From Candidatus Micrarchaeota archaeon CG1_02_47_40 (GTDB taxonomy: Archaea > Micrarchaeota > Micrarchaeia > Anstonellales > CG1-02-47-40), in assembly GCA_001871475.1 (NCBI GenBank), contig MNVE01000016.1, forward strand, positions 133,343 through 197,342: a DNA stretch of 64,000 nt. Direction: 5' to 3'. The translations under genes were made by a program, and so were the position numbers. The notes beneath the pieces are model-generated. The model saw only the letters and a program-made list of their open reading frames with translations, did not search any database and had not been told where the DNA came from. The first letter of the stretch is position 1; every line of letters begins with the position of its first letter. This document shows, one piece after another, positions 5,490-56,410 of the stretch.

Positions 5490-5502
5490 TGGAAAGCACC
5501 AG

Positions 5503-11294: not shown

Positions 11295-11297
11295 CTT

Positions 11298-14734: not shown

Positions 14735-14953
14735 ATGGAGATGGTTTGCATGGAAAAAATACTGAAAATAAAAGGAATGCACTGCAAAAGCTGCGAAATG
14801 ATAGTTGCGGATGCGGTGAATGGGATAAGAGGGGCGAAAGCCATTTACGTTGACAGTGGGAAAGGGGAGATGAAAGTCAGTGTGGAAAACGAGGGGGTTG
14901 TTGAAAAGATAGCAAAGGCGGTTGCAAAGGAAGGATATTCTTTAGTAAAATAA
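14735..14953 (+). CDS. copZ: heavy-metal-associated (HMA) copper chaperone, CopZ-like
   Basis: 72 aa with GMHCKSCE (MxCxxC). Confidence 0.75.
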   Translation: MEMVCMEKILKIKGMHCKSCEMIVADAVNGIRGAKAIYVDSGKGEMKVSVENEGVVEKIAKAVAKEGYSLVK

Positions 14954-38300: not shown

Positions 38301-39204
38301 GGGCGGTTAAGTAATTGCCAAACCCCCCCGCGTATGAGTAGCTGCCAAGGATGTTTGCTACCGTGCATAGCTCTATCGAGAGATAATATGCGTTCATGCC
38401 TTGCGGAGATTTTGAGAATTCCTGCGCGGCATCCTTGAGCCGGTCAGAAAACAACAGCAGGTATCTTGCAAAAGCCGCCGCTTCCCCCCTGTTGGCTTGG
38501 GGTATGCCGTTCATTCCTTGGGCATGTGCCTGGAAATCCCGAACCGCTTGGACGCCGTGGTGGCTTTTAAGGAATTCCGCGAAAAGCTGCGAATATTCCT
38601 GCCTTCGCTCAAGAAGGGAAAGCGAAGCGGAGCCTATCTTGGGACCTTCTTCCTTTTTTTCTTGCTGTGCCGCTGCTGGCTCTGCCGGCAACTTTCTTTG
38701 TTGGGAAAGAGACTGCTCTAATTGATATCTCATTTGCTGCTCTTGAGTTAGGAAAAGATTTTTTTGGAGTTCGCTTATTTTCTTTTGCTGTCCTTCAGTT
38801 TGGGTTGGCGCCAGAAAGAGGGAGTCTGTGCTTAAGGGAGGGCGTTTTTTCCCTAATCTGACTCCGAGTGGGGTTTTTTGCAGTTCCTCCTTTTGCGGAG
38901 CCTGCGGTGTTTTTTTCTTTTCTTTTGTATCTTTTATTCCGTTAAGAATTCCGAGGAGATGAAGGGTCTGCCCTTCAATCTTTATCGCCTTGTTGAACTG
39001 CCCGTCACGGAGCTGTTCGTTGAGGTCGGATATTATCTCTTTCCCCTTCTCTTGACCTAGAAGCTCCTTGAGGATGCCCTTGGACTCTTCCGTCAGGGAA
39101 TAGCTGTTAATCTGCCACTTGTTCTTTTTCAGGATGCCCTGCTCAACAAATTCTTTGAGCTTTTGCTTGTCAAGCTCCTCTGCACGCTTAACCTTCTGCT
39201 CCAA
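35329..39204 (-). CDS. giant hypothetical protein (1291 aa), largely helical/coiled-coil
   Basis: Long uninterrupted ORF. All plus-strand ORFs in the span are short, Cys/Pro-rich and look like antisense. Confidence 0.55.
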   Translation of the reverse strand: MEQKVKRAEELDKQKLKEFVEQGILKKNKWQINSYSLTEESKGILKELLGQEKGKEIISDLNEQLRDGQFNKAIKIEGQTLHLLGILNGIKDTKEKKKTPQAPQKEELQKTPLGVRLGKKRPPLSTDSLFLAPTQTEGQQKKISELQKNLFLTQEQQMRYQLEQSLSQQRKLPAEPAAAQQEKKEEGPKIGSASLSLLERRQEYSQLFAEFLKSHHGVQAVRDFQAHAQGMNGIPQANRGEAAAFARYLLLFSDRLKDAAQEFSKSPQGMNAYYLSIELCTVANILGSYSYAGGFGNYLTAPDGAQLDADAANRVRDYANAFGINDKREFYQTAYDELSKALIGLPATENAKPDFAGRLNESDKALYNGLAQEKQNQLMNEIQLAYVKFLAPVSENERKIVQDALKNYHLSKEGNALIGRSQDALINSRMQAFLDYKLGEEFAKAYGKLEKEPELQAGQTPVLEKTPPVAEEAQKAAATPYELVGNDLKMSDEGRRLLQEVLDGKRSKVELQYGAKQGRGQADLATLQRLSQYGLSAAGREERGIYYLLLTNNKGRELEIPQEEATAKAESPAQITGTAVPADKYGFYADSAEIHLSGYPFAVGFDKMNAPAHIAEIFQKPGEELLIKAILENPEAYLSRSADYYYFYWCFALTFHYDEEKQMFVRADEANKSIMEQYKDVLLQEDSKLKVSNTLLFMEYMMRGLQTSACAELARAQGRMGEGKAAEFGSTYKDVHRTTGNYYDVSGKELGTFASEEEAANKAGAWVKVTDAWSQEERLVYNRYRGDKLTDTKIMADKVMAKYNEYKDISLEQAIDKVANGDEVKKAAIIKGLENTGGIPSAILLAHLAAGVTITGTGSTRFGTDAQHVKVVGDIKEEFGDKAEGVLNVLQPILYGGYDNRKFIDGKKAELGLNDAEITKLKELTNPLRQISSRVAPERGAVEKKALETLAMEIEAQGKVLIGSDYSASLKASLAADAGAPIGEEKKSSTEAKYSLYFSAAKDGVYNLIEGKENIPAQLSSDGTAQVPIPTENEGFVKIAATASNRTLYPNAQTVQQEAIIEVVNVYEVQIPRHDNVKTTSDVKQFGVDAKHDVKGEIDFTGSSMFAYRTDANDRFSFVPEGTKMHYYVLSQEKADEPVYLTDLNGERAGMLTPVPRETILKTDTEGKSGGVILRTNEEGKLVYGEWKGGRAVYKECKEGSPPPVTIGTYSGILPSDIGKIGEQKEEESKLKFMQQGQLASASLRGELIAGKYEKDNSIIVWGTKKNEEFASGMSLNAVKPALYVPVFSGE

Positions 39205-41425: not shown

Positions 41426-42190
41426 TTATATTTTGCCTTTTGGCAGGCGCGAATCCAAAAATGGGAAGACCTCTTCCCATGCGGGTTTGTTTTTTGTCAG
41501 CATATCAAGCGAATTCCAACTTTTCGCCTGCTGATTGATTTTTTTGCGAATATCGCCCCAGTCTGGAATTTCTTTGCATAATGCCATTTTCTGCCTGACG
41601 ATTTCAGGCTCCAAATTTGCGCCTTTTTGCAGAAGAAAGTGCAAGTCATAAACATCCCGCACCTGATTCCGCTGCCATATTGCACGGATTTTTTCTGCTG
41701 CGATTTCTTCCAATTGCATTATGGGCAGAACATAGGAAAGCATATCGGAATAAATCGGCTTTATAGCCAGTGCCTGCGCTGGCATCAGCAAATCCTTTCT
41801 TAATGAAAGGTCAAAGCGCACGGAGCATTTTGAGCGGCTGCTGCCGTCAAAGAGCACTCCTTCTATTAAGAATCTGCCCGATGCTCCGTCTCCAAACGGA
41901 TTGGGCGCCCTTGCAAGCTCGCAACGGTATCCCTGACTTTCCAGCCATTCGGCAGCTTCGTCAAAAACTTTCAGCCGGTGTTCGTTTTCCACGCGCTCGC
42001 AGAAATCAAGGTCCTCGGAAAACCGTTGCAGCCCGTATGCCTTCTGCAGAGCCGTGCCTCCCTTGAAAACAAGCGAAGTTGTTTTTGATGCGATGAAGAG
42101 AAGCAGGAGATGCTGGAAATAATCCTTCTCCTGCTGATTAAGATTGAAGCCTGTGCGCAGTTTGTATCCCTCAAGCTCTTTTCTGTCCAT
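41426..42190 (-). CDS. AbiEii/AbiGii-family nucleotidyltransferase toxin (module 1)
   Basis: LVFKGGTALQKAYGLQRFSEDLDF hallmark. Paralogous to 46704..47450. Confidence 0.75.
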   Translation of the reverse strand: MDRKELEGYKLRTGFNLNQQEKDYFQHLLLLFIASKTTSLVFKGGTALQKAYGLQRFSEDLDFCERVENEHRLKVFDEAAEWLESQGYRCELARAPNPFGDGASGRFLIEGVLFDGSSRSKCSVRFDLSLRKDLLMPAQALAIKPIYSDMLSYVLPIMQLEEIAAEKIRAIWQRNQVRDVYDLHFLLQKGANLEPEIVRQKMALCKEIPDWGDIRKKINQQAKSWNSLDMLTKNKPAWEEVFPFLDSRLPKGKI

Positions 42191-42824
42191 TAAACCGCCT
42201 CCTAAAGCGAATGAATCTTCTCAATGCGCTTTTATTTTGGTAAAGCCTGACAAAATTCTCAACTGCCCTTAAATTAAACCTGCTCGCTCTCCTGAAATAG
42301 GCTGCCGCCGATTCTGTTTCCTCATCACCAGCCAAATCAGGTCTTGCTATGCAGTCTGCAATCGCTTTCTCCCTTCCTGCAACGAAATATTTTTTACTGC
42401 CTGCTTTTGCGGGATGGAACCCTCCGAATGCCCGCGCAGGAGTGCGATGAAAGGTTATTTCATAATTTGCAAATTTTACAGCTCTTGCGGATGCGGCGGC
42501 GGCAACTTGCACCTGCACGGGTATCTGCGTGCCCGCCCCATGAAGGATGAGCGCGCTCAAAAAAGAGATATATGAAGGTCTGATAATCGCAGTTGCGACA
42601 GCTTCTGCCGATTCGCCCGCAAGCGCGTAAAGCCCGTTTTTTATTCTGCAAAGAACCCCGGAAGAGCAAAGGCGGCTTGCAAGCACATACGGCGAATTCG
42701 TGCCTGCAATAAGCCCAAGCATTTTTGTTGAGTATACTGGATTGTCAAGCTCGCGGAGCTTCTCCACCAATTCAAATCTATTCATGGATGTGCTTTGCAG
42801 GGAAAAGGATATAAATATATGCAT
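42171..42824 (-). CDS. AbiEi-family antitoxin/transcriptional regulator (module 1)
   Basis: Lies upstream of AbiEii and overlaps it by 20 nt. Shares HP(S/T)Y(I/V)SFLSA...HG similarity with 45784..46506. Confidence 0.65.
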   Translation of the reverse strand: MHIFISFSLQSTSMNRFELVEKLRELDNPVYSTKMLGLIAGTNSPYVLASRLCSSGVLCRIKNGLYALAGESAEAVATAIIRPSYISFLSALILHGAGTQIPVQVQVAAAASARAVKFANYEITFHRTPARAFGGFHPAKAGSKKYFVAGREKAIADCIARPDLAGDEETESAAAYFRRASRFNLRAVENFVRLYQNKSALRRFIRFRRRFNGQKRA

Positions 42825-43936: not shown

Positions 43937-45124
43937 TTGATTTTTATGGCAGTCCAAATAGATATAGACAGGAAAACCTGCGAAATTACCTGCGCTCACC
44001 CTGAAAGCGTTTCTTCACTTGTGAATGGGCATTATGGAATTATGAAGAAAGGGGTGATTTACCTCTATCCCGAAGAAGCGCTCTACTTGGCGGATATCCG
44101 GAATGCAAAATGCTACGACAAGGCAGGAAATGTTTTTCACTTCAATGATTTGGCTTCCCTTTTCCCGCAAAAAAAGCTCATGGCAAGGTATTTTACTTTC
44201 AAGGATTGGAGGGACAGGGGATTGATTGCCCGCCCGGCGCATGAATTGCCTGCAGGGGTGAATTTCGGCAGAAACCCCGTAAAAAAATACCCCAAAGGAA
44301 AATTCCAGATGGACCGCTATTCCCTGCACGGGGCGTTTTACGAGGATGATTTGGTATGCATAATAGATGATTCGGCTGTCGCAAAGGATTTGTATGAGCG
44401 CTACTGGCTTGGGCAGTTTGCCTCTTACAAAGCCGAGCAGAGGGGCAATATTGGCAAATTGGATATGTATGAAACGCTGTTTATGGTGAGAAACTGCCGC
44501 CTCTCAATAAGGGGGGCGGATGAGAAGAAATTGATGAGCGAGGCGAAGAAGAGGAGGAAGGACTTCCCAGCCCTTTACGAGGTGTATGAGGACTGGAGGA
44601 TTAGGGGGTTTGTGCTGAAGACGGGTTTTAAGTTTGGCACGCACTTTCGCTTGTACTTTCCTGGGGCTTCCCCCACGAGGAATACGGATGAGTGGATACA
44701 TTCAAAGCATGTAATACATGTGTTCCCGCGCAATAGCAGGCTGCTCATTTCGGAATGGGCGCGTGCAATACGCGTTGCGCATTCGGTGAAGAAAACATTC
44801 ATACTTGCAATTCCGGGAAAAGAGGAGAAGTGGGAGGGGAAATTGGAAGTTGATTTGGATTTTGCGCTTTACCACCGCAAAGGCGGGGATATAGAAAACC
44901 CCAAGGATGGAAAGCCCAAATACCTTATGCTTTCTCTCTCGGAAGAGGAGGAGATTGGGGGAGCGGAGCTTGCAAAGGCGATTGTGAAATGCAAGGAGGT
45001 CGGGCTTGAGCTTCTGCTTGCGATTGCGGATAGGGAAACTTCGGTTACTTATTATTTGATAAAAAGGATTGAACTGCCGGGAAGCAATTATGAGTATTAT
45101 GAGATAGAATGGGTGCAGCCGTAA
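43937..45124 (+). CDS. endA: tRNA-splicing endonuclease (duplicated alpha2-type)
   Basis: C-terminal catalytic unit GFKFGTHFRLY...H...K plus a degenerate N-terminal repeat. Confidence 0.7.
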   Translation: MIFMAVQIDIDRKTCEITCAHPESVSSLVNGHYGIMKKGVIYLYPEEALYLADIRNAKCYDKAGNVFHFNDLASLFPQKKLMARYFTFKDWRDRGLIARPAHELPAGVNFGRNPVKKYPKGKFQMDRYSLHGAFYEDDLVCIIDDSAVAKDLYERYWLGQFASYKAEQRGNIGKLDMYETLFMVRNCRLSIRGADEKKLMSEAKKRRKDFPALYEVYEDWRIRGFVLKTGFKFGTHFRLYFPGASPTRNTDEWIHSKHVIHVFPRNSRLLISEWARAIRVAHSVKKTFILAIPGKEEKWEGKLEVDLDFALYHRKGGDIENPKDGKPKYLMLSLSEEEEIGGAELAKAIVKCKEVGLELLLAIADRETSVTYYLIKRIELPGSNYEYYEIEWVQP

Positions 45125-45420
45125 GGAACCTTTGACGCTTGTGCGTCAAAATTTGAACGCTCCCGCGTTCAACCCTACGGTTTGAGTGTGCTTCGCACAC
45201 ACGCTGTCCTTCGGACACCTATTGACAACTCACGTTGCCAACTGCCCAACAGCTACGCTGTTGGTTTCTCAAACACCGTGCGAGCAGAGTAGATGCAATT
45301 CTCATCCCGACTGCTCTCACGGTGTTCACCCGTTTGAAGACGAAGTCTTCAAATTTTGCCCGATTGACGCTGAAGGCGTCAAGACTTGTCCGAAGGACAA
45401 GCAGAAGGGCAAATGTTTCC
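45125..45420. repeat. array of ~10 short GC-rich hairpins (5-8 bp stems, 3-5 nt loops), many with TTGAC...GTCAA arms
   Basis: Examples: ttgacgcttgtgcgtcaa, ttgaacgctcccgcgttcaa, gtgtgcttcgcacac, caacagctacgctgttg, ttgaagacgaagtcttcaa, ttgacgctgaaggcgtcaa, cttgtccgaaggacaag. Confidence 0.75.
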
Positions 45421-45439
45421 CTTTTTATTAGCCCGCGAT

Positions 45440-45780
45440 TTTCTATTGCATTTTGTCAAAAAAAGTTTCAAAATGCACTACATTTTGGCGAAAATATTTT
45501 CAAAATGCAAATTTTAAGGATTGACCGCCAGTGCCTGTTTTCTTGCAGAACGATTTTTGGCGAATATTGTTCCCGCGCAGAACAATTTCGTGAGGTGTGT
45601 TTGTTCGGAGTTTGAGCTGAAATTCACTCTTTTTGGTCGGATTTCCGAACAGAAATATGCGTTTTTGGCTCTCTCCTTATTTACGAGGATATTTTTCTTT
45701 GCTTTTTTGTTCGAAGTTTGAGCTGGAATTGAGTGTTTTTGGTCGGATTTCCGAACAAAACCGAGGATGAATTCTTCTTT
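45440..45780. repeat. complex direct-repeat block A (copy of block at 47566..47800)
   Basis: Box ttggcgaaaa..tttcaaaatgc is followed by two tandem ~75-bp units gttcggagtttgagctg(g)aatt...ttttgg.cggatttccgaac...gtttttggctctctccttatttacgagg. Each unit has a ttcgga/tccgaa inverted pair. Confidence 0.7.
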
Positions 45781-45783
45781 TAA

Positions 45784-46506
45784 ATGAGCGTTGAAGTTAT
45801 CAAAAATGATAACTTTAAATACTTTTTGGAAGAATATATTATCATGAATGATACGGAATGGCTCAAGAAACATCCCACAATAAGGCTGGCGGATATAGAG
45901 AGAAGATGCAAAAGCCATAACTACGCCAAGCTCTTTGCGCACAGAATGCAAAAAAAAGGGATTTTGCATAAAGCAGCAAGAGGAATTTATTCCGCTTCTG
46001 AAGAAGTATTTGCAGTCGCATCAAACATTCATTATCCGAGCTATGTTTCTTTTTTGTCCGCTTCCTATTTATACGGCTTTACCGAAACGATACCCCGCAT
46101 AGTTTCCATTGCAGCGGCAAAAAAATACAGCAAAATAGAGTTCAAAGGGTATACGATAGAATTCGTTCGGATGAAGGAGCTCTGGGGTTATAAAAACGAG
46201 AACGGGGTGTTTTTGGCAGAGCCTGAAAAACTGCTGATAGACGCATTCCTAAAGCCAAAAAGCATGGGGAATTTTGAGGAAATCGAAAGGCTCTTTGGAG
46301 GCTCTTTGGAGATAAATGCTGAAAAACTCAAAACCTACCTAAAAAAAACCAATTCAGACAGAGTATACAGGTGCGTCGGGTATATGCTGGAAAAGCACAG
46401 AAAAATAGACATATCGCGCCTTATGCGCATTGATAGGAACTATTATGAGCTGAATCCGTTTGAAAGCGGCGCGGGTATAAACAGAAAATGGAGGCTTAAG
46501 GTATGA
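45784..46506 (+). CDS. AbiEi-family antitoxin/regulator (module 2)
   Basis: HYPSYVSFLSASYLYGFTE...LID similarity to 42171..42824. The likely start is an internal Met near 45844. Confidence 0.65.
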   Translation: MSVEVIKNDNFKYFLEEYIIMNDTEWLKKHPTIRLADIERRCKSHNYAKLFAHRMQKKGILHKAARGIYSASEEVFAVASNIHYPSYVSFLSASYLYGFTETIPRIVSIAAAKKYSKIEFKGYTIEFVRMKELWGYKNENGVFLAEPEKLLIDAFLKPKSMGNFEEIERLFGGSLEINAEKLKTYLKKTNSDRVYRCVGYMLEKHRKIDISRLMRIDRNYYELNPFESGAGINRKWRLKV

Positions 46507-46520
46507 AAAATCGCATTGCG

Positions 46521-46700
46521 ATTGGAGACGATGGATATGGTTGTATTGTTTAGTCTCCAAAACATGACGCTGCAGTGTCATGCAGATTTTTCAGTTGACG
46601 CCAGGGGCATCAAGACTTGCTCAACAGAGCAAGCAGAAATTGACCGGAGGTTTGACGGCGAAGCCGTCAAATTTTGACACCTCCGGTGTCAAAGGTCAAT
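46521..46700. repeat. second hairpin array between AbiEi-2 and AbiEii-2
   Basis: ttggagac-N24-gtctccaa, catgacgctgcagtgtcatg, ttgacgccaggggcatcaa, cttgctcaacagagcaag, ttgacggcgaagccgtcaa nested within ccggaggt...acctccgg, ttgacacctccggtgtcaa. Confidence 0.7.
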
Positions 46701-46703
46701 AAG

Positions 46704-47450
46704 ATGAACACAAAAGAGCTTGGGGAGTATGCCCGTCTGCGGGGCTTGAACTTAGGGCAGGCTGAAAAGGATTATTACCAAAATATACTCCTTTTTCTGC
46801 TCTACGGCAGTGTCTCAAAAGAACTTGTCTTCAAGGGAGGAACAGCCCTCTCAAAATGTTATGGATTAAACAGATTTTCAGAGGATCTTGATTTTACAGT
46901 TCTGGAGGAAAGGGATTTCATTATTATTCTGGAAAAGGGGCTTGGGGAATTTGGCATTCTTCACATGGTAAAGGAGGAGAAAACGGCTGCCCAAAGCAAA
47001 AAATACAGGCTTAAGGTGCAGGGCCCTCTTTACAGAGGGCTTGAGAGAACGCTCTGCTCAATAACGCTTGATTTCAGCTTTAGGGAGAAGGTGCTTTCCC
47101 CTCCGCTTATCAAAACCATCGGGCATCATATGGATATAATACCGGTTTTTGACGTTTATGTTATGAGCCAGAACGAGATATTGGCGGAGAAGATAAGGGC
47201 GCTTCTTGCAAGAAAATCCGCAAGGGATTTGTATGACATTGTTTTTTTATTAAGAAACGGGGCGGTTGTTGATGAGAAAATGATAAGGCAGAAGCTTGCG
47301 CTGTGCGGAATGGAATTTGACAGAAAAACATTCATTTCAAGATGCGGTTTGCTTGAGGGGATATGGGAAAGCGAGCTTAAATCGCTTGTGAAGAATGTCC
47401 CTTCCTTTAAGGAGTATGTTGGAATGGTGAAGGGGAAGGTTGAGAGATAG
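46704..47450 (+). CDS. AbiEii-family nucleotidyltransferase toxin (module 2)
   Basis: MNTKELGEYARLRGLNLGQAEKDYYQ...LVFKGGTALSKCYGLNRFSEDLDF aligns along its length with 41426..42190 (MDRKELEGYKLRTGFNLNQQEKDYFQ...). The ORF-track TTG start at 46674 is rejected. Confidence 0.75.
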   Translation: MNTKELGEYARLRGLNLGQAEKDYYQNILLFLLYGSVSKELVFKGGTALSKCYGLNRFSEDLDFTVLEERDFIIILEKGLGEFGILHMVKEEKTAAQSKKYRLKVQGPLYRGLERTLCSITLDFSFREKVLSPPLIKTIGHHMDIIPVFDVYVMSQNEILAEKIRALLARKSARDLYDIVFLLRNGAVVDEKMIRQKLALCGMEFDRKTFISRCGLLEGIWESELKSLVKNVPSFKEYVGMVKGKVER

Positions 47451-47565: not shown

Positions 47566-47800
47566 TGGCGAAAAAAGTTTCAAAATGCGCATTTTTTCAG
47601 GATTTGATCGGAGTTTGAGCCAATTTTAAGTGTTTTTGGGGGGGATTTCCGAACGAAAATAGGCGTTTTTGGCTCTCTCCTTATTTACGAGGGGAGTTTT
47701 CTTTGCTTTTTTGTTCGGAGTTTGAGCTGGAATTAGAGGGGATTTTGGACGGAAGTCCGAACGAATTATGCTGGAGGGGCTTATTTTGCCGAATTTTAGG
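47566..47800. repeat. complex direct-repeat block B (copy of block at 45440..45780)
   Basis: tttggcgaaaaaagtttcaaaatgcgc, then two units containing tcggagtttgagc...gatttccgaacgaaaataggcgtttttggctctctccttatttacgagg and ttttctttgcttttttgttcggagtttgagctggaatt. Confidence 0.7.
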
Positions 47801-47896: not shown

Positions 47897-50800
47897 TCAG
47901 AAGGAACGGGTGATTTTCCCATATATGAAGTAATCGTTCTTCTTTGTCGGTTCGTATATCCATTCATCAACAACACCAAATCCGAAGTAGCCTGGCTTTC
48001 CGACGATGCTGCCGATTACTCCAAATTCGCCCTGGGCGGTTGCAGAGCGGATTTGCTCGTATTGGGAAAGACCGAGTCCAAGGCATGCCCTAAACTGTCC
48101 AAAGTATTTTTCACCTTTGAAGCCGCCAGTATAAAGCGGCGCACCTTCATCTTCGCCGTATCCTGCCTGCTTCGTGAAATTGAGCATGTAATTGTAAGTC
48201 CTGCCTGCGTGGGTAAAAGTTACCTTCCAAAGGTCTGAATCCACATAAACCCCATTAACCATAATCGGACCCCAGGCAACCCCCCCCTCTGTGGCAATGC
48301 CTCCTTTGCCTATTGGGGAGTTCGGCGGGAGTTTTTCCGCAAAAAGAAGCAGTTTGAAGTTGTCAAGCTTCCAGATGGCGCCCACACCAAGGTTTGTATT
48401 TTTCAGTTTTTCATCCTCCCCAAGGTCAAAACTGGCGACTACAGAGAAATTATCTTTCAAATCAATCATCGTTGAAACGATGTTCCTTTTCTTTCCGCCT
48501 TCAACTCCGGGTGTTTGGGAAAATGAGAGCATCATGCCCGGCGTTCCATCCTCGCTCCTTATTTTCATTGTGAAATCGCGTATGCTGCCTCCTGCAAGCT
48601 GATTGAGAAGGGAGTAATTATCAGCCCCCATGAATGATGATTTCATCGCTTCAGAAACTGTGTAGAGCGCGGCTTTCTTTTCTACCTCAGTTGAGGCAGG
48701 AGTGTTTAAAACTTCCTGATATGCGCCATATGCACTCTTCAGGGCAGTTAAGTCAAGGTTTTGGGGCACGAAAAGCGAGTATGCGCTGTTCTGCGACGGG
48801 TCTGACCAATTTGCCATAACTTCCATGTCTGCAGTTCCAAGCTTGGTTTGGAGATTTGTGGTGTAGCGGTTGTAGCCCTCTTCGTACTTTCTGTATTGAC
48901 TGCGCATTGTCGTTGCGAGATATTTTCCTTCAAATCCTCCAACGAAAGAGTCAAGCTTTTGCCCTTCGCCCGTCTGGGTTTCATCAACGCGCCATGACCC
49001 AAATCCATATCCTCTTGCAAGAAGCCCTGTCTCTCCTTTCTGGCGGGTGTATTCGCCGCTTTGATATCCTATATTCGCCCCTCCAAAGTGCGAATTGCCA
49101 TTATGATCGCTTAGCGCGATTGTAGCGGCAAGTATGCGCTCGTTTTCAAACTCCTTTCTCGCGGAAGTTGATGCTATTCCTATCTGGTTTTGCGCGCCCT
49201 GCGCGAGTTCGCCCTCAACCTTGCTTATGGTTTCCATGTCGCCATAATTTTGCTGAAAAATGTTTCCGGTGCCTGTGCCGGTAAGGTTGCTAAGCTTGTT
49301 CTCGTTTAGAGTATACCAGCCTATTTTCACTTCGTATTTTTCGCCTGATGCCTGCACGGCTTCGGCGCGCTCCCTTTGAACGGTTTGCGCATTGATTCCG
49401 GCAAACTTGATGCTTTTCCCAAGCGCATCGCTTCCAAGCGCAGCATAGAAGCCAGTATGAGTGCCTGCAACATTCTCCTGCCCTAAAGGAACATCATAAA
49501 TTCTCTGCTGGATGCCTACGCTTCCCTGAAACGCGCCTTCATCATATGAGCCAATGCGGGAGAATATGTTTCCTACCTTTTCAATGGAATCCTGTGATGT
49601 AGTATAAAGCGCTTTTCTGACATCGTCTGTCAAAATGAGTTCAACCCAAGTCGTGCCTGCCATGCGCCAATAGACGTGCAAATCATCCATGTAATTGCTT
49701 GTTTCGCTTGTTTGGGCTTGCGAGCCGGTGCTGTGCCAGTCATAATGCATAAGCAGGGAGGATTGGGCATACGGCGAGCTGTTGAGCTGTGCCACAACAT
49801 TTTCGTTGACTGCCTTGTATGACTGGGATTCCTGCTGTGTTGCCTGTAAATTGTATTGAAGATTTCTGATGAGCGCGCCGCCTATGAGCGGCAGTTTGCT
49901 ATTTTGTATTTCAGCGTATGCCTGCTGATTTGTTGAATCTGTGCCTGCATTTTCAGAGGTGGTTGAGATTACGCCTCCGCTTGCGTTTGAGAGGGGGTTT
50001 ATGGAGTTCCAAACTCCTTCTCCAGTTATTCCTTTGTGTTGTGCATTATCAAACGTGTTGCCTCCTGCAAGCGTGCCGTCTAATGAACCGACTCCGCCCA
50101 TTCTCGGAAAACCCCTTCCAAGCGCCCCCTCAAGAGACTCGTCAAGGGCGCGCTGTGCGAACGTTATGTCTGTGTAGTACTCCCTTTCAAGCCCTCTTAA
50201 GAAGAGCCTTGCAAATCCATCCCGCGTCCATTGCCTGTTCTTGAAAGAGTAAAGCTCCCTGCGGCTCTCCTCAAGCTGATAGGGCATCGAGCTTTGGAAT
50301 GTCTGCCCGATTGTGGTTATTGGGTATGGCTCGTCAAATGGTCCGAATAAATGCCTTCCGAATTGGTCGCGCAAAAACCCGAAAACGTTGTCATAAGGCG
50401 AAATCAGATATTCATTAATTCCGGTTATTGCCGATGGCTTTATGTAAATAATTCCCTTGTCGCTGACACCTATCTGTTCATTGGTGAAATTCGCGACAAA
50501 ATTATCCGTATTCAGGTCGTATTGCGCCATGCTTGAGAAAAAGGCGCCAAGCTTTGCTTTCTTTTCCTCTTGGGTGCCCGGATATCCGTAAACGGTCATT
50601 GCATACTCTGCGGTTGAATTGAGTATTTGCAGCCTTGTGGAGTAATCAACCACTGAAATGTCCGGGAATATTTTTTTAAGCAATTTCTCCTGCCCCATAA
50701 GCTCGTGCATTACGGCATTTGATTTTCCCTTATTGGCAGAAAATAGGTCGCGCAGGGGATTTGCACCGTAAATTGAGTTTGAGATTTCATTTATGCCCGT

Positions 50801-52210
50801 ATCTATAGAGAAGGCCGCATTTGCCATGCTGACACTTCCTGTTGCATTCTGTTCGGGATTTTGGAGTATGCCCCAAATCTGGTTCTGGTTTTGGCTAAGC
50901 CAGTCAAGCCCCTGCGTTATGTGCGTAATGCCGCTCATGTCTGCGCCGCCAACATTCATGCCTGCAAGAAGCTGTTGTTTGTAATCAAGAAGCCTGCCAA
51001 GGATTGGGATGAGCTGCATATTAAAAACGTTTTGCGAAAGGCCGTTTGCAGAGCCAAAAAGATTATTCAGATTTGTATATTCCGTCCTGAAAGCCGCTAG
51101 ATATTGCACTGCAGATTCATAGGCAGGCGTCGCATTCAGGTTTAACTGGGAGATTGGCAGTTCTTTGTTGTTTATCAGGCTTATTCCCTTTAGGATTGTT
51201 TCCATATTGTATACTGAACGCCTGTAAAGATACGCCGCTTCCGGTCCGTTTAAGTTGAATACTTGGTCGGGCAGGACGTTCACTGCTGCAAAGCCGGAAA
51301 CCAGCTCATCTGCCGCCGAGGAATTTTTCTGCCTTGCCCTTTCAAGGTTTCCCTTTATCGCGCCTTCTTCAAGAAGTGCGTTTGCAAGTGATTTATACTG
51401 CTCAAGAATGCCTGCATTCTTTCTGATGCCTTGCGTGTTTATGCCGTGTGCAGTTAGGGTTTTGTCGTAGGCGGACATGTCCGGACCATAAACTGCCTTT
51501 ATTGCAAATTCTGCTGCGGCAGGGATTATCAGAAATTTTCCAGCAGCATCCTTCTTTTCAACATCGTCCAGTTTTCCAATCATTTTTTTTATTGCTTCCT
51601 CGTCGCCCATATAATTGAAAATGTATTCCCTTGTGGCATAATCAACTGCGTTTATAAGTGAAACGCATTTTGCGGCATCCCTTGAGAATGCCTGCAGGGA
51701 TTGCCCAATAATTATATTGCTGTTTTTGAGAAGCTCCAATTCCGTTGCGTCATCCCTAATATTGCTGTGTTTGTCGTCCCATTGCTTGCAGAGGGAGTCA
51801 AAACTCTGCAAGTCGTCCCAGTTTGAATAGTTGATTATCTGCATTGTCAGGTTGAAAAAATCTTTCTTAAGCCCAAGCGTATGAAGCGTCTGGTCAAATT
51901 CATTTTTACCTTCTGTTGGGGTGTATTGTGTGTCGTTGTAGACTTTTTTTGGAGTTGAAACGAGAATATCGCTTTTTGGCAGTTGTGTTGGTGGTTCCCC
52001 GGCTTTCTGTAGAAGATTTTCAAGATTTCGCATATATGCAAGCGCCTTGGCTTGCTCATTTGATTTGTATGCACTTTGAAGATTTCTCAATTCCGCCAAA
52101 AGAGAGGGATATCGCTCGGTGCCTTTAAAGGCATCTACCCTCGTTTGAAACTCCTCTATTTGCCTTGGTTCGATGGAAAGTTGCAGGCTGCCCATAATTA
52201 ACACTCTCAC
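47897..52210 (-). CDS. giant hypothetical protein (1437 aa), Gly/aromatic-rich beta-like C-terminus ending in Phe
   Basis: Last gene of a 4-gene operon. The C-terminal ...GYFGFGVVDEWIYEPTKKNDYFIYGKITRSF has alternating aromatic/hydrophobic residues. Confidence 0.6.
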   Translation of the reverse strand: MRVLIMGSLQLSIEPRQIEEFQTRVDAFKGTERYPSLLAELRNLQSAYKSNEQAKALAYMRNLENLLQKAGEPPTQLPKSDILVSTPKKVYNDTQYTPTEGKNEFDQTLHTLGLKKDFFNLTMQIINYSNWDDLQSFDSLCKQWDDKHSNIRDDATELELLKNSNIIIGQSLQAFSRDAAKCVSLINAVDYATREYIFNYMGDEEAIKKMIGKLDDVEKKDAAGKFLIIPAAAEFAIKAVYGPDMSAYDKTLTAHGINTQGIRKNAGILEQYKSLANALLEEGAIKGNLERARQKNSSAADELVSGFAAVNVLPDQVFNLNGPEAAYLYRRSVYNMETILKGISLINNKELPISQLNLNATPAYESAVQYLAAFRTEYTNLNNLFGSANGLSQNVFNMQLIPILGRLLDYKQQLLAGMNVGGADMSGITHITQGLDWLSQNQNQIWGILQNPEQNATGSVSMANAAFSIDTGINEISNSIYGANPLRDLFSANKGKSNAVMHELMGQEKLLKKIFPDISVVDYSTRLQILNSTAEYAMTVYGYPGTQEEKKAKLGAFFSSMAQYDLNTDNFVANFTNEQIGVSDKGIIYIKPSAITGINEYLISPYDNVFGFLRDQFGRHLFGPFDEPYPITTIGQTFQSSMPYQLEESRRELYSFKNRQWTRDGFARLFLRGLEREYYTDITFAQRALDESLEGALGRGFPRMGGVGSLDGTLAGGNTFDNAQHKGITGEGVWNSINPLSNASGGVISTTSENAGTDSTNQQAYAEIQNSKLPLIGGALIRNLQYNLQATQQESQSYKAVNENVVAQLNSSPYAQSSLLMHYDWHSTGSQAQTSETSNYMDDLHVYWRMAGTTWVELILTDDVRKALYTTSQDSIEKVGNIFSRIGSYDEGAFQGSVGIQQRIYDVPLGQENVAGTHTGFYAALGSDALGKSIKFAGINAQTVQRERAEAVQASGEKYEVKIGWYTLNENKLSNLTGTGTGNIFQQNYGDMETISKVEGELAQGAQNQIGIASTSARKEFENERILAATIALSDHNGNSHFGGANIGYQSGEYTRQKGETGLLARGYGFGSWRVDETQTGEGQKLDSFVGGFEGKYLATTMRSQYRKYEEGYNRYTTNLQTKLGTADMEVMANWSDPSQNSAYSLFVPQNLDLTALKSAYGAYQEVLNTPASTEVEKKAALYTVSEAMKSSFMGADNYSLLNQLAGGSIRDFTMKIRSEDGTPGMMLSFSQTPGVEGGKKRNIVSTMIDLKDNFSVVASFDLGEDEKLKNTNLGVGAIWKLDNFKLLLFAEKLPPNSPIGKGGIATEGGVAWGPIMVNGVYVDSDLWKVTFTHAGRTYNYMLNFTKQAGYGEDEGAPLYTGGFKGEKYFGQFRACLGLGLSQYEQIRSATAQGEFGVIGSIVGKPGYFGFGVVDEWIYEPTKKNDYFIYGKITRSF

Positions 52211-54324
52211 TTAAGCGTTTGGAGATAGAGTATCCTGTTGCTATCGGTTGTAAAGGTATTGAGATCGGTTGCGATTTGAATGAACTCATTTTCGTTGCGA
52301 CTTAATCCGCTAAGTTTAGTTTCAAGCTCGGGAGATATTGAAAGATTCAGTGTGTTCTTCACGAAACCAACCAAATCCGCGCTGCTTTTCACTTCCTCCG
52401 CCTTAATCGGCGCTTGGGCTGGCGTTTCCTCCACCTGCGCTTTTACTGACACTGATTCAGGCAACTCTTCTACCTCCGAATTTTCTTCAGCACTTGTGCC
52501 CGACACGCTAACCTCAAACTCCAGCAGTCCGGCGTCTTTGTAGGCTTCGCTGGCTTTCACTATCTTGTAGGCTTCTTTCAGGCGTTCAGATGAAGACTCA
52601 AGTTCAATAAGTTCGACATACTTGCTTTTAATTGCCTCAAAAAATTCCTTATTTTCAAGCATATGCCGAATCATCTCGGGATTTATCTTCTGGTATTCTT
52701 CACTGCCCATATTGCAGGCTGTAAGGAAATTCTTTAGAGTTTCGGCGTTTTTATCTATCTCTTCTTTCTTCCCTGACTGGAAGTTCTCTTTCAGGTTCCC
52801 TGCACGGTCATTTGCAATTTGACTGATAACATTCCTTAAAGTCACTTTATTGCCGTCTGCGTTCTTGAAAAGAGTGTCGTCTATGTTTCCGGCGCTTATC
52901 CTGCCTGCCTCCTCTTTTGCGTTTGCAAGAAGCTTCTCTTTGTTTTTTGCGTCCTGGCTGATGAGGCTTTTCAGAGTTGTCTCAAGGGTTGCATCAGTTA
53001 TTTCGTATTTGCCGGTTCCCTTCCCATTTTTCTTTATTTCCTTGGCAATTCCGGCAAACTCGGCGCACGCAAGATAGAGTTTCTTATCGTCTTTGTTCGT
53101 CACGTTCGCAAGCCCTGCAAGGTATGCCGACTGCGCCTCGGTTGAGGGCTCAACGAAGAGGGTGTTGTTAGTGCGGTAAGTAATGAGGATTTGGAGAAGC
53201 TCGGAGGAAGCAAATGAGCGCTCGGGTGCGCTGTTGAGAGCGGAGACTGTTGTTTTTCTTCCATTGATGTATAGAGCCGGCTCCTGCAAGCTGATTGCGC
53301 TTGCGATTGCGTTTTTTGCTTGGCTGACGATGGCGTTGATGGTGGAGATGATTGCTTCCCCATTTGGTATGGGTGCTTCGGATTGCACTTCAGTGACATC
53401 AGGCTTTTTCTCAACCGGCTCGTAGTTTCCCTTTATTCCGGTTAATATGTCTGTCCACTTGTCTTTCCATTTCTGCGTTGTCGCAAGAGAGTTCAGGAGC
53501 TCGCTTTGAACGCCCCCATCCTTGTCAAACATCTTCTCAAGCATCGCATCTGCGGTTTCCGCCTTCAGCCCGTCAGCTATTGTTTTTGCCTTCGGATATC
53601 CCTTTGCGGTGAAAAGCGCGAAAAGCTCCCTGAAAAGAAGGGTTTGTTTTTCATCAAGCAGAGTGTTTGCATCCTTTTTTTGCAGATAGCCGACAAACTC
53701 GCTTCTCTTGTGCTTTGTCCTGTCTATAAGCCCGTTCTCAAACATCCATCTTAAAGCAAAGAACGCGCCTTCCTTCATCATCTTCTGCTTCAGGTCGGCT
53801 CCGGTTATGTCCTTGCCCTCTGCCGAGTAGGTGCTGCTGTCTTTTATCTTTTCTTCGGTCGCGGTGTTGAAGAAAGGAATATTGCCAAGAAGGACTTTTT
53901 TGTCGGCTTCTGAAATCAGCTTATTGTATATTGGGCTGAAAACGCCGTCTATGTGAGTGTATGAGAGCGTTTTGGCGGCTGCCGGTGTTGCCGCGTTTTC
54001 AGTTGCAGTAATTCTGTTCAAATCCGCAATGAAATCGTCTACTTTAGAATAATTCTTGTCAGTGCCAGTAAATCCGAAATGGGAAAGATACATGCGCTTC
54101 AAAGAGTTGCCGGAAGTGCGGCAGATATTCCAAGTTGAGTCTATTTTTTGAGTTTTAATGTAATCTAAAGCTTCAACTGCTGTTTCAGCTGCGTTTGTTT
54201 TATTCGGTGGGTTTTCTTTGAGGCAAGTTATTATGCTGTTGCGAAATTTTGCGAGTTCCTTCTCCTGCTCTTGGGAAACCACAGTTTTTTTCAACTGCAA
54301 CTCAAATAAAAACACCATGTTCAT
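52207..54324 (-). CDS. hypothetical helical Lys/Glu-rich protein (705 aa)
   Basis: 4-nt overlap with the downstream giant gene. No motif recognised. Confidence 0.55.
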   Translation of the reverse strand: MNMVFLFELQLKKTVVSQEQEKELAKFRNSIITCLKENPPNKTNAAETAVEALDYIKTQKIDSTWNICRTSGNSLKRMYLSHFGFTGTDKNYSKVDDFIADLNRITATENAATPAAAKTLSYTHIDGVFSPIYNKLISEADKKVLLGNIPFFNTATEEKIKDSSTYSAEGKDITGADLKQKMMKEGAFFALRWMFENGLIDRTKHKRSEFVGYLQKKDANTLLDEKQTLLFRELFALFTAKGYPKAKTIADGLKAETADAMLEKMFDKDGGVQSELLNSLATTQKWKDKWTDILTGIKGNYEPVEKKPDVTEVQSEAPIPNGEAIISTINAIVSQAKNAIASAISLQEPALYINGRKTTVSALNSAPERSFASSELLQILITYRTNNTLFVEPSTEAQSAYLAGLANVTNKDDKKLYLACAEFAGIAKEIKKNGKGTGKYEITDATLETTLKSLISQDAKNKEKLLANAKEEAGRISAGNIDDTLFKNADGNKVTLRNVISQIANDRAGNLKENFQSGKKEEIDKNAETLKNFLTACNMGSEEYQKINPEMIRHMLENKEFFEAIKSKYVELIELESSSERLKEAYKIVKASEAYKDAGLLEFEVSVSGTSAEENSEVEELPESVSVKAQVEETPAQAPIKAEEVKSSADLVGFVKNTLNLSISPELETKLSGLSRNENEFIQIATDLNTFTTDSNRILYLQTLK

Positions 54325-54337
54325 CAGCCTCCTTAAA

Positions 54338-56410
54338 TCATTTTAAAGTTTCTTCTATCGCGGCGTCAAAATCATCTTTATTCTTTATGGAATTTTTCTT
54401 CTTTTTTAACTCCTCTGCCAAAGCTTCTCTTAAGTCGTTTATGCTGTTGTTGGGGTGCCTTTTTTGCAGTGTGCCGTCAAACTCGCCTTTTTCCACGTCT
54501 GAAAGGGCGGCATCAAAGCTGAAGGTCGTGTCCTGCGCTGCCGGTTGCAGGAATTTTTTCAGCTCCTCTCCAAGAATTTTTTGTTTTGTGGAGTCGGTTA
54601 TCTCTTCAAACCGTAAATTCAAGCTGTCTTTTAGGGCTTGCATCTTCGTGCTGTCGCCTCCGAGTATTTCGTATGGGGTGGTAATAATTTTCACCGTGCC
54701 CCCAGGGGCTTTTTCCCAGTTGATAGGTGTATTTCCTATTTGAACTATCCAGTCTTTGGTGACAGATTTTTTGGCTTCGTTTAGTGCTTCATCCTGTTTT
54801 TTCTGCTTTTCCAGCTGCTGCTTCGTTTGTTCTTCCTGCGCTTTTTGTGCCGCTTCGTTCGCTTCGTGCTTTTGGGCGGATTTTTGCGCAGTAGAATTAA
54901 AGTAGAATTTTCTTGGGAGGACCGATTCTGCGGCAAAGGCGGGTTGGCGCGCCCAAAGTTTCGCGTCTGCCAGCAATGGCTTTGCCACACGAATGGCCCC
55001 TTCACCGATAACGCCTCCAAGGTAAGCAGGTGAGTATGCCGCCCCTATCCCGATATTTGCCAGCTTTGTTTGCCCCGCCATATGCTCCACCCTATGTTCA
55101 TCTACCCACTTAAGTGGAGAAACTCCTTTTGGTTTCCATTTTCTAAGCCGGACTCCCAAGCCCTTGATTTTCTTAGTGCTGGTTGCTATTGCTTTTCCAG
55201 CTCCCTCGTTGAGGAGTTGTGATGCTGTTTTTTCTCCGATTTCACTGCCTGCGTTTCCAATTACATTTTTTCCTGCGCCCATGGCGATGTCATACTCGTC
55301 AACAACCTTCAGCGATACTCCATTTTCCCCGAATTCCAGAGATAATTTAGCATTCGGATTGCGGCGCAATTTGCGAGAAACCTCCAAAGCAACGGTTTCC
55401 ATATCCTTTACGAAAGAATTGTAAACCTCCCTAAGCTCGGGATTACTGAAAAGAGTTTTTCCTTTTCCCTCTAAAAGAACCGTCGCGCCTCCGGCAGTTA
55501 CTTCCCTTCCTGTTTTGGTGGAAACGTCAATGGCTGTCTTTTCTACTGCTTGGTTGAACTCATCCACATGCTGTTTTAGGAACTTCGCAGTTGCGTCCTC
55601 AATTTCCTCCCGAGTTATGGCTCCTCCTTTGTTTTTTATCAGCGCAAACAAATCTTCTGCAGTCGCATTCTTGACGTAATCAATAGGATTTGTGTTCTTT
55701 AGGATGTATTTAGGTGCGTTTAGCGCAAAATCGCTGTAAGCTTGGGAGAGCGCCCTCCTTGCCGCTTGGGAGGTTATGGCATCCGCCATCATCTTCTCGG
55801 CTTGTTTGGCGCTTAACTCACCTGCGGCTTTCACGGCTTCGGCTTCCGTTGCCGTTTGGATAAGCTTCGTTTCAGCAACGCTTTTTGTGACTGGGTTGCC
55901 GGCTGCCAGTTTTACTGCGAGATCGGCACTTTTTATAGCATTACTCTCACTTCTTTCCAAAACTGCGCGCTTGACAAGCTCCTTGCTTGGCGGCATAAAT
56001 CCCTCCTCCAGTGCCACCTGCGCAAGCGGTTTTACTGCTCGTTCTGCGACTTGCCTTCCAAGTTTTTTTTCTGCTTCTTTGGCGGTGTCTTCAATCATCT
56101 TCTTGGCTACCTTTACAGCTATTGGGCGCAGCGCCATTGCCTCCGCCTTGAGCATAATCCCGACAGGAGGGTATAACAGTGCGGCATCACCTACAAGAGA
56201 GATTGCAAAAGCACTTGCCATGATTCCTGCCGCCCCCCACTGTCCGCGTGCGGTGTAACATATTCCGTCTTTGAATGCTATGGCTGTGCCGGTTATGGGG
56301 AGCCACTCAAGCGCCTTCTCGGTCTGTGTTTTCCCCTTTTCAGGGTTTATCCAACTTCCAGTAATCAGCTTATCCCAATTACTCGGCTTTTCTTGTTGAG
56401 TTTGAGTCAT
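54338..56410 (-). CDS. hypothetical protein (690 aa) with N-terminal hydrophobic hairpin and Ala/Lys/Glu-rich helical body
   Basis: GAAGIMASAFAISLVGDAALLYPPVGIM hydrophobic segment near the N-terminus. Start coupled to the stop of the upstream 161-aa gene (shared nt 56410). Confidence 0.55.
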   Translation of the reverse strand: MTQTQQEKPSNWDKLITGSWINPEKGKTQTEKALEWLPITGTAIAFKDGICYTARGQWGAAGIMASAFAISLVGDAALLYPPVGIMLKAEAMALRPIAVKVAKKMIEDTAKEAEKKLGRQVAERAVKPLAQVALEEGFMPPSKELVKRAVLERSESNAIKSADLAVKLAAGNPVTKSVAETKLIQTATEAEAVKAAGELSAKQAEKMMADAITSQAARRALSQAYSDFALNAPKYILKNTNPIDYVKNATAEDLFALIKNKGGAITREEIEDATAKFLKQHVDEFNQAVEKTAIDVSTKTGREVTAGGATVLLEGKGKTLFSNPELREVYNSFVKDMETVALEVSRKLRRNPNAKLSLEFGENGVSLKVVDEYDIAMGAGKNVIGNAGSEIGEKTASQLLNEGAGKAIATSTKKIKGLGVRLRKWKPKGVSPLKWVDEHRVEHMAGQTKLANIGIGAAYSPAYLGGVIGEGAIRVAKPLLADAKLWARQPAFAAESVLPRKFYFNSTAQKSAQKHEANEAAQKAQEEQTKQQLEKQKKQDEALNEAKKSVTKDWIVQIGNTPINWEKAPGGTVKIITTPYEILGGDSTKMQALKDSLNLRFEEITDSTKQKILGEELKKFLQPAAQDTTFSFDAALSDVEKGEFDGTLQKRHPNNSINDLREALAEELKKKKNSIKNKDDFDAAIEETLK

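Follow-up and report, generated by a model that had tools for sequence, protein, structure and literature searches.

A mosaic of putatively mobile palindromic repeats between the genes of an AbiE toxin-antitoxin operon in Candidatus Micrarchaeota

We analyzed a stretch of 64,000 nucleotides (hereafter, the window) from the genome of Candidatus Micrarchaeota archaeon CG1_02_47_40, a DPANN archaeon (contig MNVE01000016.1, positions 133,343 to 197,342), and an array of hairpins in it that separates the two genes of an AbiE toxin-antitoxin operon, abiEi-2 and abiEii-2. Exact matches to NCBI proteins provided the names of the tRNA-intron endonuclease, both AbiEii proteins, pelota and others. Using Pfam, we assigned the surrounding archaeal housekeeping genes, which include phosphoglycerate kinase, a wyosine radical-SAM enzyme and a 392-aa tRNA-splicing endonuclease; further genes of the window encode Orc1/Cdc6, Cdc48 with a LAGLIDADG intein, and Bud32. 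The Pfam scan covered 28 of the window's open reading frames (ORFs), the genes between 14000 and 27464 lying outside it, and the census of repeats covered ∼111 kb of the genome. Alternative assemblies obtained from different samples agree at 100% identity throughout the region.

Two AbiE modules were identified in the window, and the AbiE paralogs are 35% identical. The genes of module 1 (41426-42824, minus strand) overlap by 20 nt. In the second module, on the plus strand, the antitoxin/regulator gene abiEi-2 (45844-46506) precedes the toxin gene abiEii-2 (46704-47450), which encodes a nucleotidyltransferase (Pfam AbiEii, E 9e-35). The match of abiEi-2 to Pfam AbiEi_4 is just short of the cutoff (E 4e-5, 24 bits, cutoff 25); its product is 47-57% identical to the AbiEi proteins that accompany the closest AbiEii homologs, and PF13338 is present in these proteins. 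The mechanically called abiEi-2 ORF starts at 45784, and its probable true start is the ATG at 45844, as all AbiEi homologs begin at residue 21 of this ORF. The resulting 20-codon N-terminal extension (45784-45843) spans a conserved palindrome with a 9-bp stem, aagttatcaAAAAtgataactt (45794-45815), the probable operator of AbiEi. Inverted repeats in the abiEi promoter are known binding sites of AbiEi itself (PMC3985639), and nearly the same palindrome, GTTATCA-WAAA-TGATAACTTTAAATACTTT, precedes abiEi in the homologous modules L016 and L019 (GTTATCA-AAAA-TGATAAC in the window). The start of abiEii-2 has been called variously, giving proteins of 258 aa (TTG 46674), 254 aa (GTG 46686) and 248 aa (ATG 46704). 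Both longer versions start within the hairpin array, and the alignment with homologs favors 46704, where the N-terminus MNTKEL aligns with MNIDEL/MNLEQL.

The gene order is that of AbiE systems, a winged helix-turn-helix AbiEi gene followed by a DUF1814 nucleotidyltransferase AbiEii gene. The genes neither overlap nor abut: the AbiEi stop (46506) and the AbiEii ATG (46704) are 197 nt apart, in agreement with an earlier note on this DNA, which described the pair as split by hairpins and set it against the overlapping module 1. The closest AbiEii homologs (71, 65 and 60% identity) belong to modules from other archaea, L016 (a related Micrarchaeota genome), L018 and L019, and in all three the two genes overlap by 4 nt (ATGA); the same 4-nt overlap was described in S. 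agalactiae (PMC3985639). In L016 the overlapping stop and start read cgtATGAacatt (more widely, ...CGTATGAACATT), and the window reads ggtATGAAaaatc at the end of AbiEi (GGTATGAA at 46500-46507). The C-terminus ...NRKWRLxV* common to the homologs is found in the window protein as ...NRKWRLKV*, and the protein ends align end-to-end with those of the homologs. Thus, the ancestral junction appears to be retained as GTATGAA (46501-46507), within which ATGAA (46503-46507) comprises the AbiEi stop TGA (46504-46506) and the putative relic ATG of the ancestral overlap. The same five bases recur at 46704-46708, being the first five of abiEii-2. Because the genes overlap in the homologs, the old junction survives and ATGAA recurs at the AbiEii start, we interpret positions 46508-46703 as a 196-bp insertion that interrupted the ATGA overlap and is flanked on both sides by a 5-nt direct repeat. 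The array is absent from the three homologous modules, and its removal would restore the overlap, giving GTATGAAC. The insertion left both the antitoxin stop codon and the toxin start codon intact.

All hairpins that the earlier note had quoted from the spacer are present, and there are two outer stems that it had not described. The 5' module, M1 (46504-46593), is a multibranch structure seen in both the minimum free energy and centroid structures. Its outer stem, TGAAAAATC (46504-46512) paired with GATTTTTCA (46585-46593), encloses three hairpins: atcgc-att-gcgat, ttggagac (46522-46529) paired with gtctccaa (46553-46560) across 23 nt rather than the 24 given before, and catgac..gtcatg followed by CAG-A (46563-46586). 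The last of these carries, together with its CAG, the 3'-end signature of the repeat family described below, and at 46563-46590 it is followed by ATTTTT (T5) and was flagged as terminator-like. Next comes unit U1 (46595-46637), a double hairpin of the form TTGACGCC-AGG-GGCATCAA, GA, CTTGCTC-AACA-GAGCAAG, CAGA. The 3' module, M3 (46639-46700), has an outer stem ATTGACC (46639-46645)/GGTCAAT (46694-46700) around the hairpins tttgacggc-GAA-gccgtcaaa (46651-46671, U2 type) and tttgacacc-TCC-ggtgtcaaa (46673-46693). An alternative pairing of CCGGAGGT (46644-46651) with ACCTCCGG (46679-46686), that is ccggaggt with acctccgg, is mutually exclusive with the latter hairpin.

The predicted fold of 46500-46720 reaches -79.3 kcal/mol, compared with -54.4 +/- 4.0 kcal/mol for shuffled sequences (z -6.2, plus strand); the minus strand of the spacer gave z -7.6, and an upstream array (45120-45420) gave z -8.1. 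When the whole window was scanned with an 80-nt sliding fold, both arrays and a related hairpin at 16001-16100 were among the few outliers. Terminator-like sites were not above the shuffled level (4 versus 3.3). The Rfam 15 covariance models gave no matches at the gathering threshold in the whole window, only chance-level matches of at most 19 bits were obtained at E <= 10 over 45100-46720, and no tRNA or tmRNA genes were found. Hammerhead and other small ribozymes were rejected by eye, as the junction strands GA/GA/CAGAA do not fit their cores. Integron attC sites were rejected by inspection only, the R''/R' cores (RYYYAAC/GTTRRRY) and a window integrase being absent.

The double hairpin is a member of a repeat family. 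The pattern TTGACN{8,10}TCAAGACTTGN{9,11}CAAGCAG matches the window three times (0 expected), at 5265-5305 (minus strand), 45364-45404 and 46595-46636. Two further full copies lie on another contig of the same genome, in loci L009 and L012 (re-read as L025 and L024, respectively): the former separates the divergently oriented genes for MCM and a HEAT protein and is upstream of both starts (L025:15555-15599), and the latter lies downstream of a DNA ligase gene. The five full U1 copies score 66-70 bits with the covariance model R1 (66.6 bits for the copy in the spacer), and ∼4 partial copies score 19-26 bits. About 25 nucleotides (GTCAAGACTTG...CAAGCAGA), unpaired positions included, are common to the five dispersed copies. 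A second unit, U2 (GTTTGAnnnC-GAA-GnnnTCAAATTTTG), which is a hairpin followed by TTTT, has two copies that are 85% identical (45332-45358 and 46650-46676), and the hairpin 46651-46671 matches hairpin 1 of the L009 unit at 19 of 19 positions. Hairpins ending in ...CANG-CAG-A occur eight times in the ∼111 kb, always within arrays. From these copies we derived a common anatomy of 37-46 nt, consisting of a variable hairpin 1, GA (AA in one nested copy), a conserved hairpin 2 of the form C-N-TG...CA-N-G, and CAG-A. Each of the six units is oriented in sense with the gene that it lies in or beside.

Among 185,579 species genomes the U1 pattern had only 2 matches (∼0.6 expected by chance); these, in a cyanobacterium and an alphaproteobacterium, were rejected as family members, neither forming the double hairpin. 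A metagenome scan with a relaxed pattern returned 10 loci. In eight of them the double hairpin is missing and the match seems to be due to chance; the remaining two are genuine and are from the same genome. Viral contigs had no match to the U1 pattern. Six-frame translations of the five units gave 8000 candidates in the protein database, none with E <= 10, such matches being too short for significance.

Conservation of pairing is evident in U1, in U2 and in an outer stem. Over 15 stem pairs, the five U1 copies are 98.6% paired, and at three pairs both partners have changed (U-A to C-G twice, C-G to U-A, C-G to G-C). Their covariation score of 0.200 compares with 0.091 in shuffles, of which 1 in 500 reaches the observed score, and sliding the 3' partners out of register reduces pairing to only 25-44%. 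The copies at 46595-46636 and 45364-45404 are the same double hairpin, with tcc/gga in one and ctc/gag in the other within stem 2, exactly as the earlier note had reported in arguing for compensatory change. The divergence among further copies is likewise compensatory rather than random: both differing pairs of U2 are compensated, and the outer stem around U1 reads TTTGCCC/GGGCAAA at 45355-45413 and TTTGACC/GGTCAAA in L009. The asymmetry of G.U versus C.A pairs, with one case each way (T.G in the 45364 copy and C.A, on the plus strand, in hairpin 1 of the 46595 copy), discriminates neither RNA from DNA nor one strand from the other. Palindromy kept within a repeat family is not in itself proof that an RNA function was selected; the same pattern would follow from the needs of a copying mechanism or from templated correction of one arm by the other.

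Two other insertions can be dated against empty sites. One U1 copy lies in frame within a RelE/HigB-like toxin gene (5184-5489, minus strand), at 5265-5305, and is bracketed by ATTGA (on the plus strand, TCAAT at 5260-5264 and 5302-5306). The encoded protein has 101 aa, compared with 85-90 aa in all 14 homologs found, and its alignment with nine RelE-like homologs contains a single 14-aa gap exactly at AQASRLVRQDKQ. The DNA alignment with the homolog L026 has a clean 42-nt indel at ...TATG|..TTGATGAGG, and the weak Pfam HigB_toxin and ParE matches of the 101-aa protein improve once the insert is removed. In the AlphaFold model (mean predicted local distance difference test, pLDDT, of 68.6) the insert forms a loop with pLDDT below 50 between two beta-strands. 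With an upstream 89-aa gene it forms a small toxin-antitoxin-like pair (5184-5772, minus strand); the pair adjoins an MNT-type nucleotidyltransferase (5871-6572) and lies just downstream of orc1/cdc6 (4100-5182).

The second case is a related two-hairpin unit at the start of the Bud32 kinase gene (11298-11353, plus strand), TGGAAAAATC-GGAAGGA-GATTTTTCCA, GA, CTTGC-cttagaga-GCAAG, CAG, which the R1 model matches at 11297-11350 with 22.9 bits. The outer stem of M1 is nearly identical to its stem 11299-11325, with one compensated G:C pair differing. ATGGA flanks the unit at 11298-11302 and again at 11349-11353. The 210-aa ORF is matched by the Bud32 profiles from residue 20-23 onward, which makes ATG 11349 the likely native start, and 51 nt appear to have been inserted there with a 5-nt repeat. 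At each of the three datable insertions, an internal tetranucleotide (TCAA, TCCA, TTCA) is paired with the final four bases of the 5' repeat (TTGA, TGGA, TGAA), and the two form the base of the first hairpin. A true target-site duplication and a site that happened to match the 5' end of the element (microhomology or template switching) cannot be told apart here.

Nesting is seen in a second array (45131-45413, plus strand), which follows the tRNA-splicing endonuclease gene and holds U2 (45332-45358) and U1 (45364-45404). This U1 sits in the GAA loop of a hairpin formed by TTTGCCC (45355-45361) and GGGCAAA (45407-45413); it splits a C(GAA)G loop, as does the L009 copy, and the L012 copy lies in the loop of GCCGCACGA/TCGTGCGGC. 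The segment 45354-45414 and L009:1320-1380 form a 61-nt composite with 88.5% identity. The order of the two units is reversed between the arrays, with U2 coming before U1 at 45332-45404 and after it at 46595-46676. The AbiE spacer is thus a nested mosaic, probably produced by more than one event.

Taken together, the spacer is best explained as a mosaic of small mobile palindromic repeats that were inserted in the abiEi-abiEii ATGA overlap and split the toxin-antitoxin operon, a reading to which we assign a probability of roughly 70%. We favor it because of the empty sites in homologous AbiE modules, the in-frame insertion in the RelE-like gene, the Bud32 junction, the family of copies within the genome, the mosaic order of the units, the conserved pairing, the lack of an Rfam match, and the hairpin clusters and MITE-like palindrome of the related L016 genome. 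The insertions, the family and the covariation are direct results of the comparisons above; with regard to the mode of spread, we infer that elements insert beside or inside one another, often into hairpin loops, which would give rise to nested arrays such as 46508-46703 and 45131-45413. They may spread as folded single strands of DNA or RNA, either through a hairpin-recognizing enzyme of the HUH type and single-strand transposition, or through copy-choice replication and microhomology-mediated template switching. Pairing of the stems would be kept because copying needs the fold or because the arms correct each other.

A more specific proposal, which we regard as doubtful, is that the units represent an undescribed ultra-small (37-46 nt) archaeal mobile element whose internal TCAA, TCCA or TTCA pairs with a target TTGA, TGGA or TGAA, with preference for AT(G/T)(G/A)A sites. 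The new hairpin would then be built partly from the target and a 5-nt repeat would be left; the preferred sites would include start and stop codons; the sense orientation would mean either that elements enter the displaced non-template strand or that they pass through an RNA intermediate; and host toxin-antitoxin operons would be remodeled as a result.

Several observations weigh against mobile repeats as the source of the spacer. The Pfam scan revealed no Y1/HUH, REP-associated tyrosine transposase (RAYT) or other transposase among the 28 ORFs. Copy number is modest (five full copies), and the family was seen neither in other species representatives nor in viral contigs. For M1 and for most of the hairpins in the upstream array, the sequence available contains no second copy. 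All data derive from one uncultivated population, and no insertion polymorphism was observed among the identical assemblies. The repeat at the AbiE junction is itself weak evidence of mechanism, since, for both genes to be kept, selection would demand that at least ATGA be duplicated. Finally, a selfish element acting only at the level of DNA would not be expected to show a uniform sense orientation, which hints at a constraint or role at the RNA level; alternatively, this bias could come from insertion into the displaced non-template strand.

Such a role is the basis of two other explanations. The units could be host-beneficial protectors or terminators of transcript 3' ends, which have spread by their usefulness and were recruited between abiEi and abiEii for differential expression. 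In line with this, clusters start 5-70 nt after the stops of several genes (the tRNA-splicing endonuclease at 45131, DNA ligase at L024:11812, arginyl-tRNA synthetase at L025:11885, MCM at L025:17746 and AbiEi at 46504), every unit is sense-oriented, C-G-closed GAA and UUCG loops are common, and U2 is a hairpin with TTTT after it. We nevertheless consider it unlikely, given that one unit lies between divergent genes and upstream of both starts, one in a coding sequence and one at a start codon, that the count of terminator-like sites does not exceed that in shuffled sequences, and that archaeal termination relies on oligo-T and not on hairpins. A dedicated cis-regulatory RNA that gates translation or stability of the AbiEii message, for example through competition between CCGGAGGT/ACCTCCGG and the second M3 hairpin, is close to what the earlier note had proposed. 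It would account for the strong structure and its sense orientation, the complete pairing of positions -4 to -65 of the toxin start (including GGAGG at 46646-46650 with CCTCC at 46680-46684), the hairpin plus T5 at 46563-46590, and the covarying stems. The hairpins are indeed non-random and their pairing is maintained. However, the units recur in unrelated contexts, even inside a coding sequence, a spacer is missing from the homologous AbiE modules, Rfam gives no match, and the covariation is among dispersed paralogous copies and not orthologous spacers. The AbiEii start codon is also mostly unpaired (P unpaired 0.5-0.8), and opening costs only ∼4.9 kcal/mol for -10..+3 and ∼5.9 kcal/mol for -15..+12, so that the region upstream is structured and the start itself is not occluded. 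The 41-nt unit is a generic dispersed element rather than an AbiE-specific device, because copies sit in the RelE-like coding sequence, downstream of DNA ligase and between the MCM and HEAT-protein genes. Hence a regulatory reading is not supported as the primary explanation, and we judge a dedicated switch to be quite improbable.

Palindromes could instead arise locally, with no mobile element, by template switching or fold-back synthesis in situ, the likeness between sites coming from a shared sequence bias. The base of hairpin 1 always includes flanking target bases (TTGA/TCAA, TGGA/TCCA, TGAA/TTCA), arms are perfect and loops variable, and the loop of one long hairpin is flipped between its two copies with the arms unchanged. 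Yet fold-back cannot yield ∼25 nucleotides conserved in five dispersed copies at unpaired positions as well, nor does it fit a 61-nt composite that is 88% identical between two contigs, and we regard this origin as very improbable. We give hardly any weight to operators of the TTGAC-N-GTCAA type for a dimeric DNA-binding protein, such as a regulator, nucleoid or replication factor. TTGACGC-N3-5-GCGTCAA was seen five times, related TTGA..TCAA palindromes are clustered, and one site is beside the orc1/cdc6 gene; but internal stem positions change on both sides and the spacing varies from 3 to 5, so that pairing rather than half-site sequence is kept, the second hairpin and outer stems are unrelated in sequence, and one copy lies within a coding sequence.

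If mobile repeats did split the operon, the toxin gene would have lost its translational coupling to the antitoxin gene, and its cistron would now stand behind ∼190 nt of very stable structure, including one hairpin with T5. Initiation behind the 7-bp outer stem is probably weaker, according to the folding model, than the ancestral coupled restart. REP elements within operons alter the relative expression of flanking genes (malE-malF), and toxin output may be lowered relative to antitoxin as with such elements in E. coli operons. The bacterial rules for a hairpin plus T5 may not necessarily be valid in archaea. An excess of antitoxin would be harmless, which may explain why the insertion persists. 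A toxin-antitoxin module would be expected to tolerate an insertion of this kind. Effects on toxin expression are plausible, as side-effects of the insertion.

Other repeats were found around the module. The abiE-2 cassette is preceded by a direct repeat of ∼160 nt with two ∼55-nt sub-repeats, GTTCGGA...TCCGAAC (45600-45757, plus strand), and followed by its counterpart at 47603-47762 (plus strand; 84% identity to 45600-45756), which has two such sub-repeats as well. The L016 cassette is bracketed by perfect 166-nt direct repeats (L016:8976-9141 and 12770-12935), and that of L019 by perfect 55-nt direct repeats (L019:3135-3189 and 5643-5697) with a tyrosine integrase nearby. These flanking repeats suggest that AbiE modules may travel as small integrated cassettes. 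The 166-nt repeat of L016 itself forms a long palindrome and has terminal inverted repeats of 13 nt (GGCTCTGTAGAAA...TTTCTACAGAGCC); in its two identical copies it looks like a MITE (miniature inverted-repeat transposable element). The L016 genome also contains intergenic hairpin clusters.

The long hairpin of the upstream array (45272-45326) has a copy at 16024-16078 (minus strand; 85% identity, loop inverted) that is nested in a stem aagggggg/cccccctt and is the strongest local folding outlier in the window. Compared on the plus strand, the two 55-nt hairpins have identical arms, including the same C/T mismatch, and reverse-complemented 23-nt loops, as if the loop had been flipped by recombination between the arms. 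A 49-nt repeat at 14750-14798 and 15003-15051 (98% identity) corresponds to the N-termini of two adjacent heavy-metal-associated domain genes; it is a local gene duplication unrelated to the hairpins.

Among the neighboring genes, Cdc48/VCP (7150-10692, plus strand) has a LAGLIDADG-type intein (Pfam match at residues 786-854), and an intein is also present in the A-type ATPase catalytic subunit on another contig (L024:15369-18704). The tRNA-splicing endonuclease (43937-45124, plus strand) is a single protein of 392-395 aa with two catalytic-domain stretches and a match to the N-terminal domain, presumably reminiscent of the three-unit enzyme of the ARMAN-2 Micrarchaeota. Two runs of very large ORFs on the minus strand, 30852-39204 (979, 514 and 1291 aa) and 47897-56410 (1437, 705 and 690 aa), are almost devoid of Pfam domains, the sole match being CARDB repeats in the 979-aa protein.

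Repetitive extragenic palindromic (REP) sequences, bacterial interspersed mosaic elements (BIME) and Rickettsia palindromic elements (RPE) are textbook features of bacterial genomes; to our knowledge, small palindromic repeats have hardly been described in archaea, and we know of none in Micrarchaeota. The present family offers three insertions that can be dated against empty sites, each touching a gene boundary or reading frame: an ATGA-coupled operon was apparently split with both genes intact, 14 residues were added to a RelE-type toxin, and a start codon was duplicated. It thus provides a concrete case of such elements reshaping very small, gene-dense genomes. The insertions also explain disagreements among gene callers, namely the 248, 254 and 258 aa versions of AbiEii and the N-terminal extensions of the Bud32 and AbiEi ORFs that homologs and profiles do not match. 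Should the junction rule hold across the genome, a new mechanism of insertion would be indicated; otherwise, this would be an ordinary repeat family in a new host. In the literature we found no description of this two-hairpin family, its junction rule or its effects on the three genes.

One likeness is to REP and BIME, which are short (20-40 nt) imperfect palindromes, dispersed and mostly extragenic with occasional intragenic copies, and which form mosaics of different unit types with stems kept by compensatory change and variable loops. The present units are likewise short repeated palindromes (stems of 7-9 bp, loops of 3-5 nt; five U1 and two U2 copies). REPs are defined by an unpaired GTAG or CGTC tetranucleotide (PMC3733652); GTAG is absent here, CGTC occurs only in a paired stem (gCGTCaa), and the conserved unpaired parts are GA and CAGA. 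REPs number tens to thousands per genome; five full and ∼4 partial copies were seen here in ∼111 kb, two of the full ones through scans of public collections. No RAYT or Y1_Tnp was detected in the 28 ORFs, and the alternating orientation and conserved linkers of BIME are not observed: all U1 and U2 have the same orientation and their linkers differ. In contrast to REP, the unit is a fixed hairpin pair ending in CAG-A, shows a low visible copy number and has junction repeats of 5 nt, which REPs lack. The host belongs to the DPANN archaea, and tagged REPs were listed only from bacterial phyla in one survey (PMC3733652).

The 42-nt (14-aa) insertion in the RelE-like loop recalls RPEs, palindromic repeats that are found in frame in coding genes and tolerated as surface loops; here, too, an in-frame insertion is tolerated in a protein, an analogy only, as size and sequence are unrelated to RPEs. 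Those elements, with the features that Ogata and co-workers reportedly described in 2000, are bacterial and ∼100-150 bp long, compared with 42 nt and one certain intragenic case here. RPEs are also mentioned in the REP survey (PMC3733652).

With MITEs, including the palindrome-associated elements derived from IS200/IS605 (PATEs), the units share a small, non-autonomous, structured and intergenic nature and direct repeats at junctions. The 5-nt repeats ATTGA, ATGGA and ATGAA have the form of a target-site duplication, indistinguishable from microhomology with the 5' end of the element. The ends of neither the 196-nt insert nor U1 are mutual inverted repeats, no insertion sequence that could serve as an autonomous partner was detected by Pfam in the 28 ORFs, and the units are far below the typical 50-500 bp of MITEs. 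PATEs have subterminal hairpins at both ends, lie 3' of a fixed tetra- or pentanucleotide that is not duplicated, and occur in genomes with TnpA; here two hairpins and a direct repeat are present, the junctions are similar rather than fixed, and no TnpA was found in the window scan. Structured repeats are unsurprising in this lineage, because high MITE densities have been reported in some DPANN archaea (PMC11602168) and L016 contains hairpin clusters and the MITE-like palindrome. IS200/IS605 elements have hairpin ends and read a short target (TTAC, TTGAT) by an internal guide, much as the junction repeat here pairs with an internal tetranucleotide, but they do not duplicate the target.

The operon itself resembles type IV AbiE systems in its AbiEi-like winged helix-turn-helix regulator, its AbiEii nucleotidyltransferase and the palindromic operator predicted upstream, and departs from the canonical bicistron with its 4-nt overlap in that the genes are 197 nt apart. 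As for the elements that probably separated them, they fall outside the strict definition of every class considered, and in function they resemble REP/BIME, RPE and MITE/PATE.

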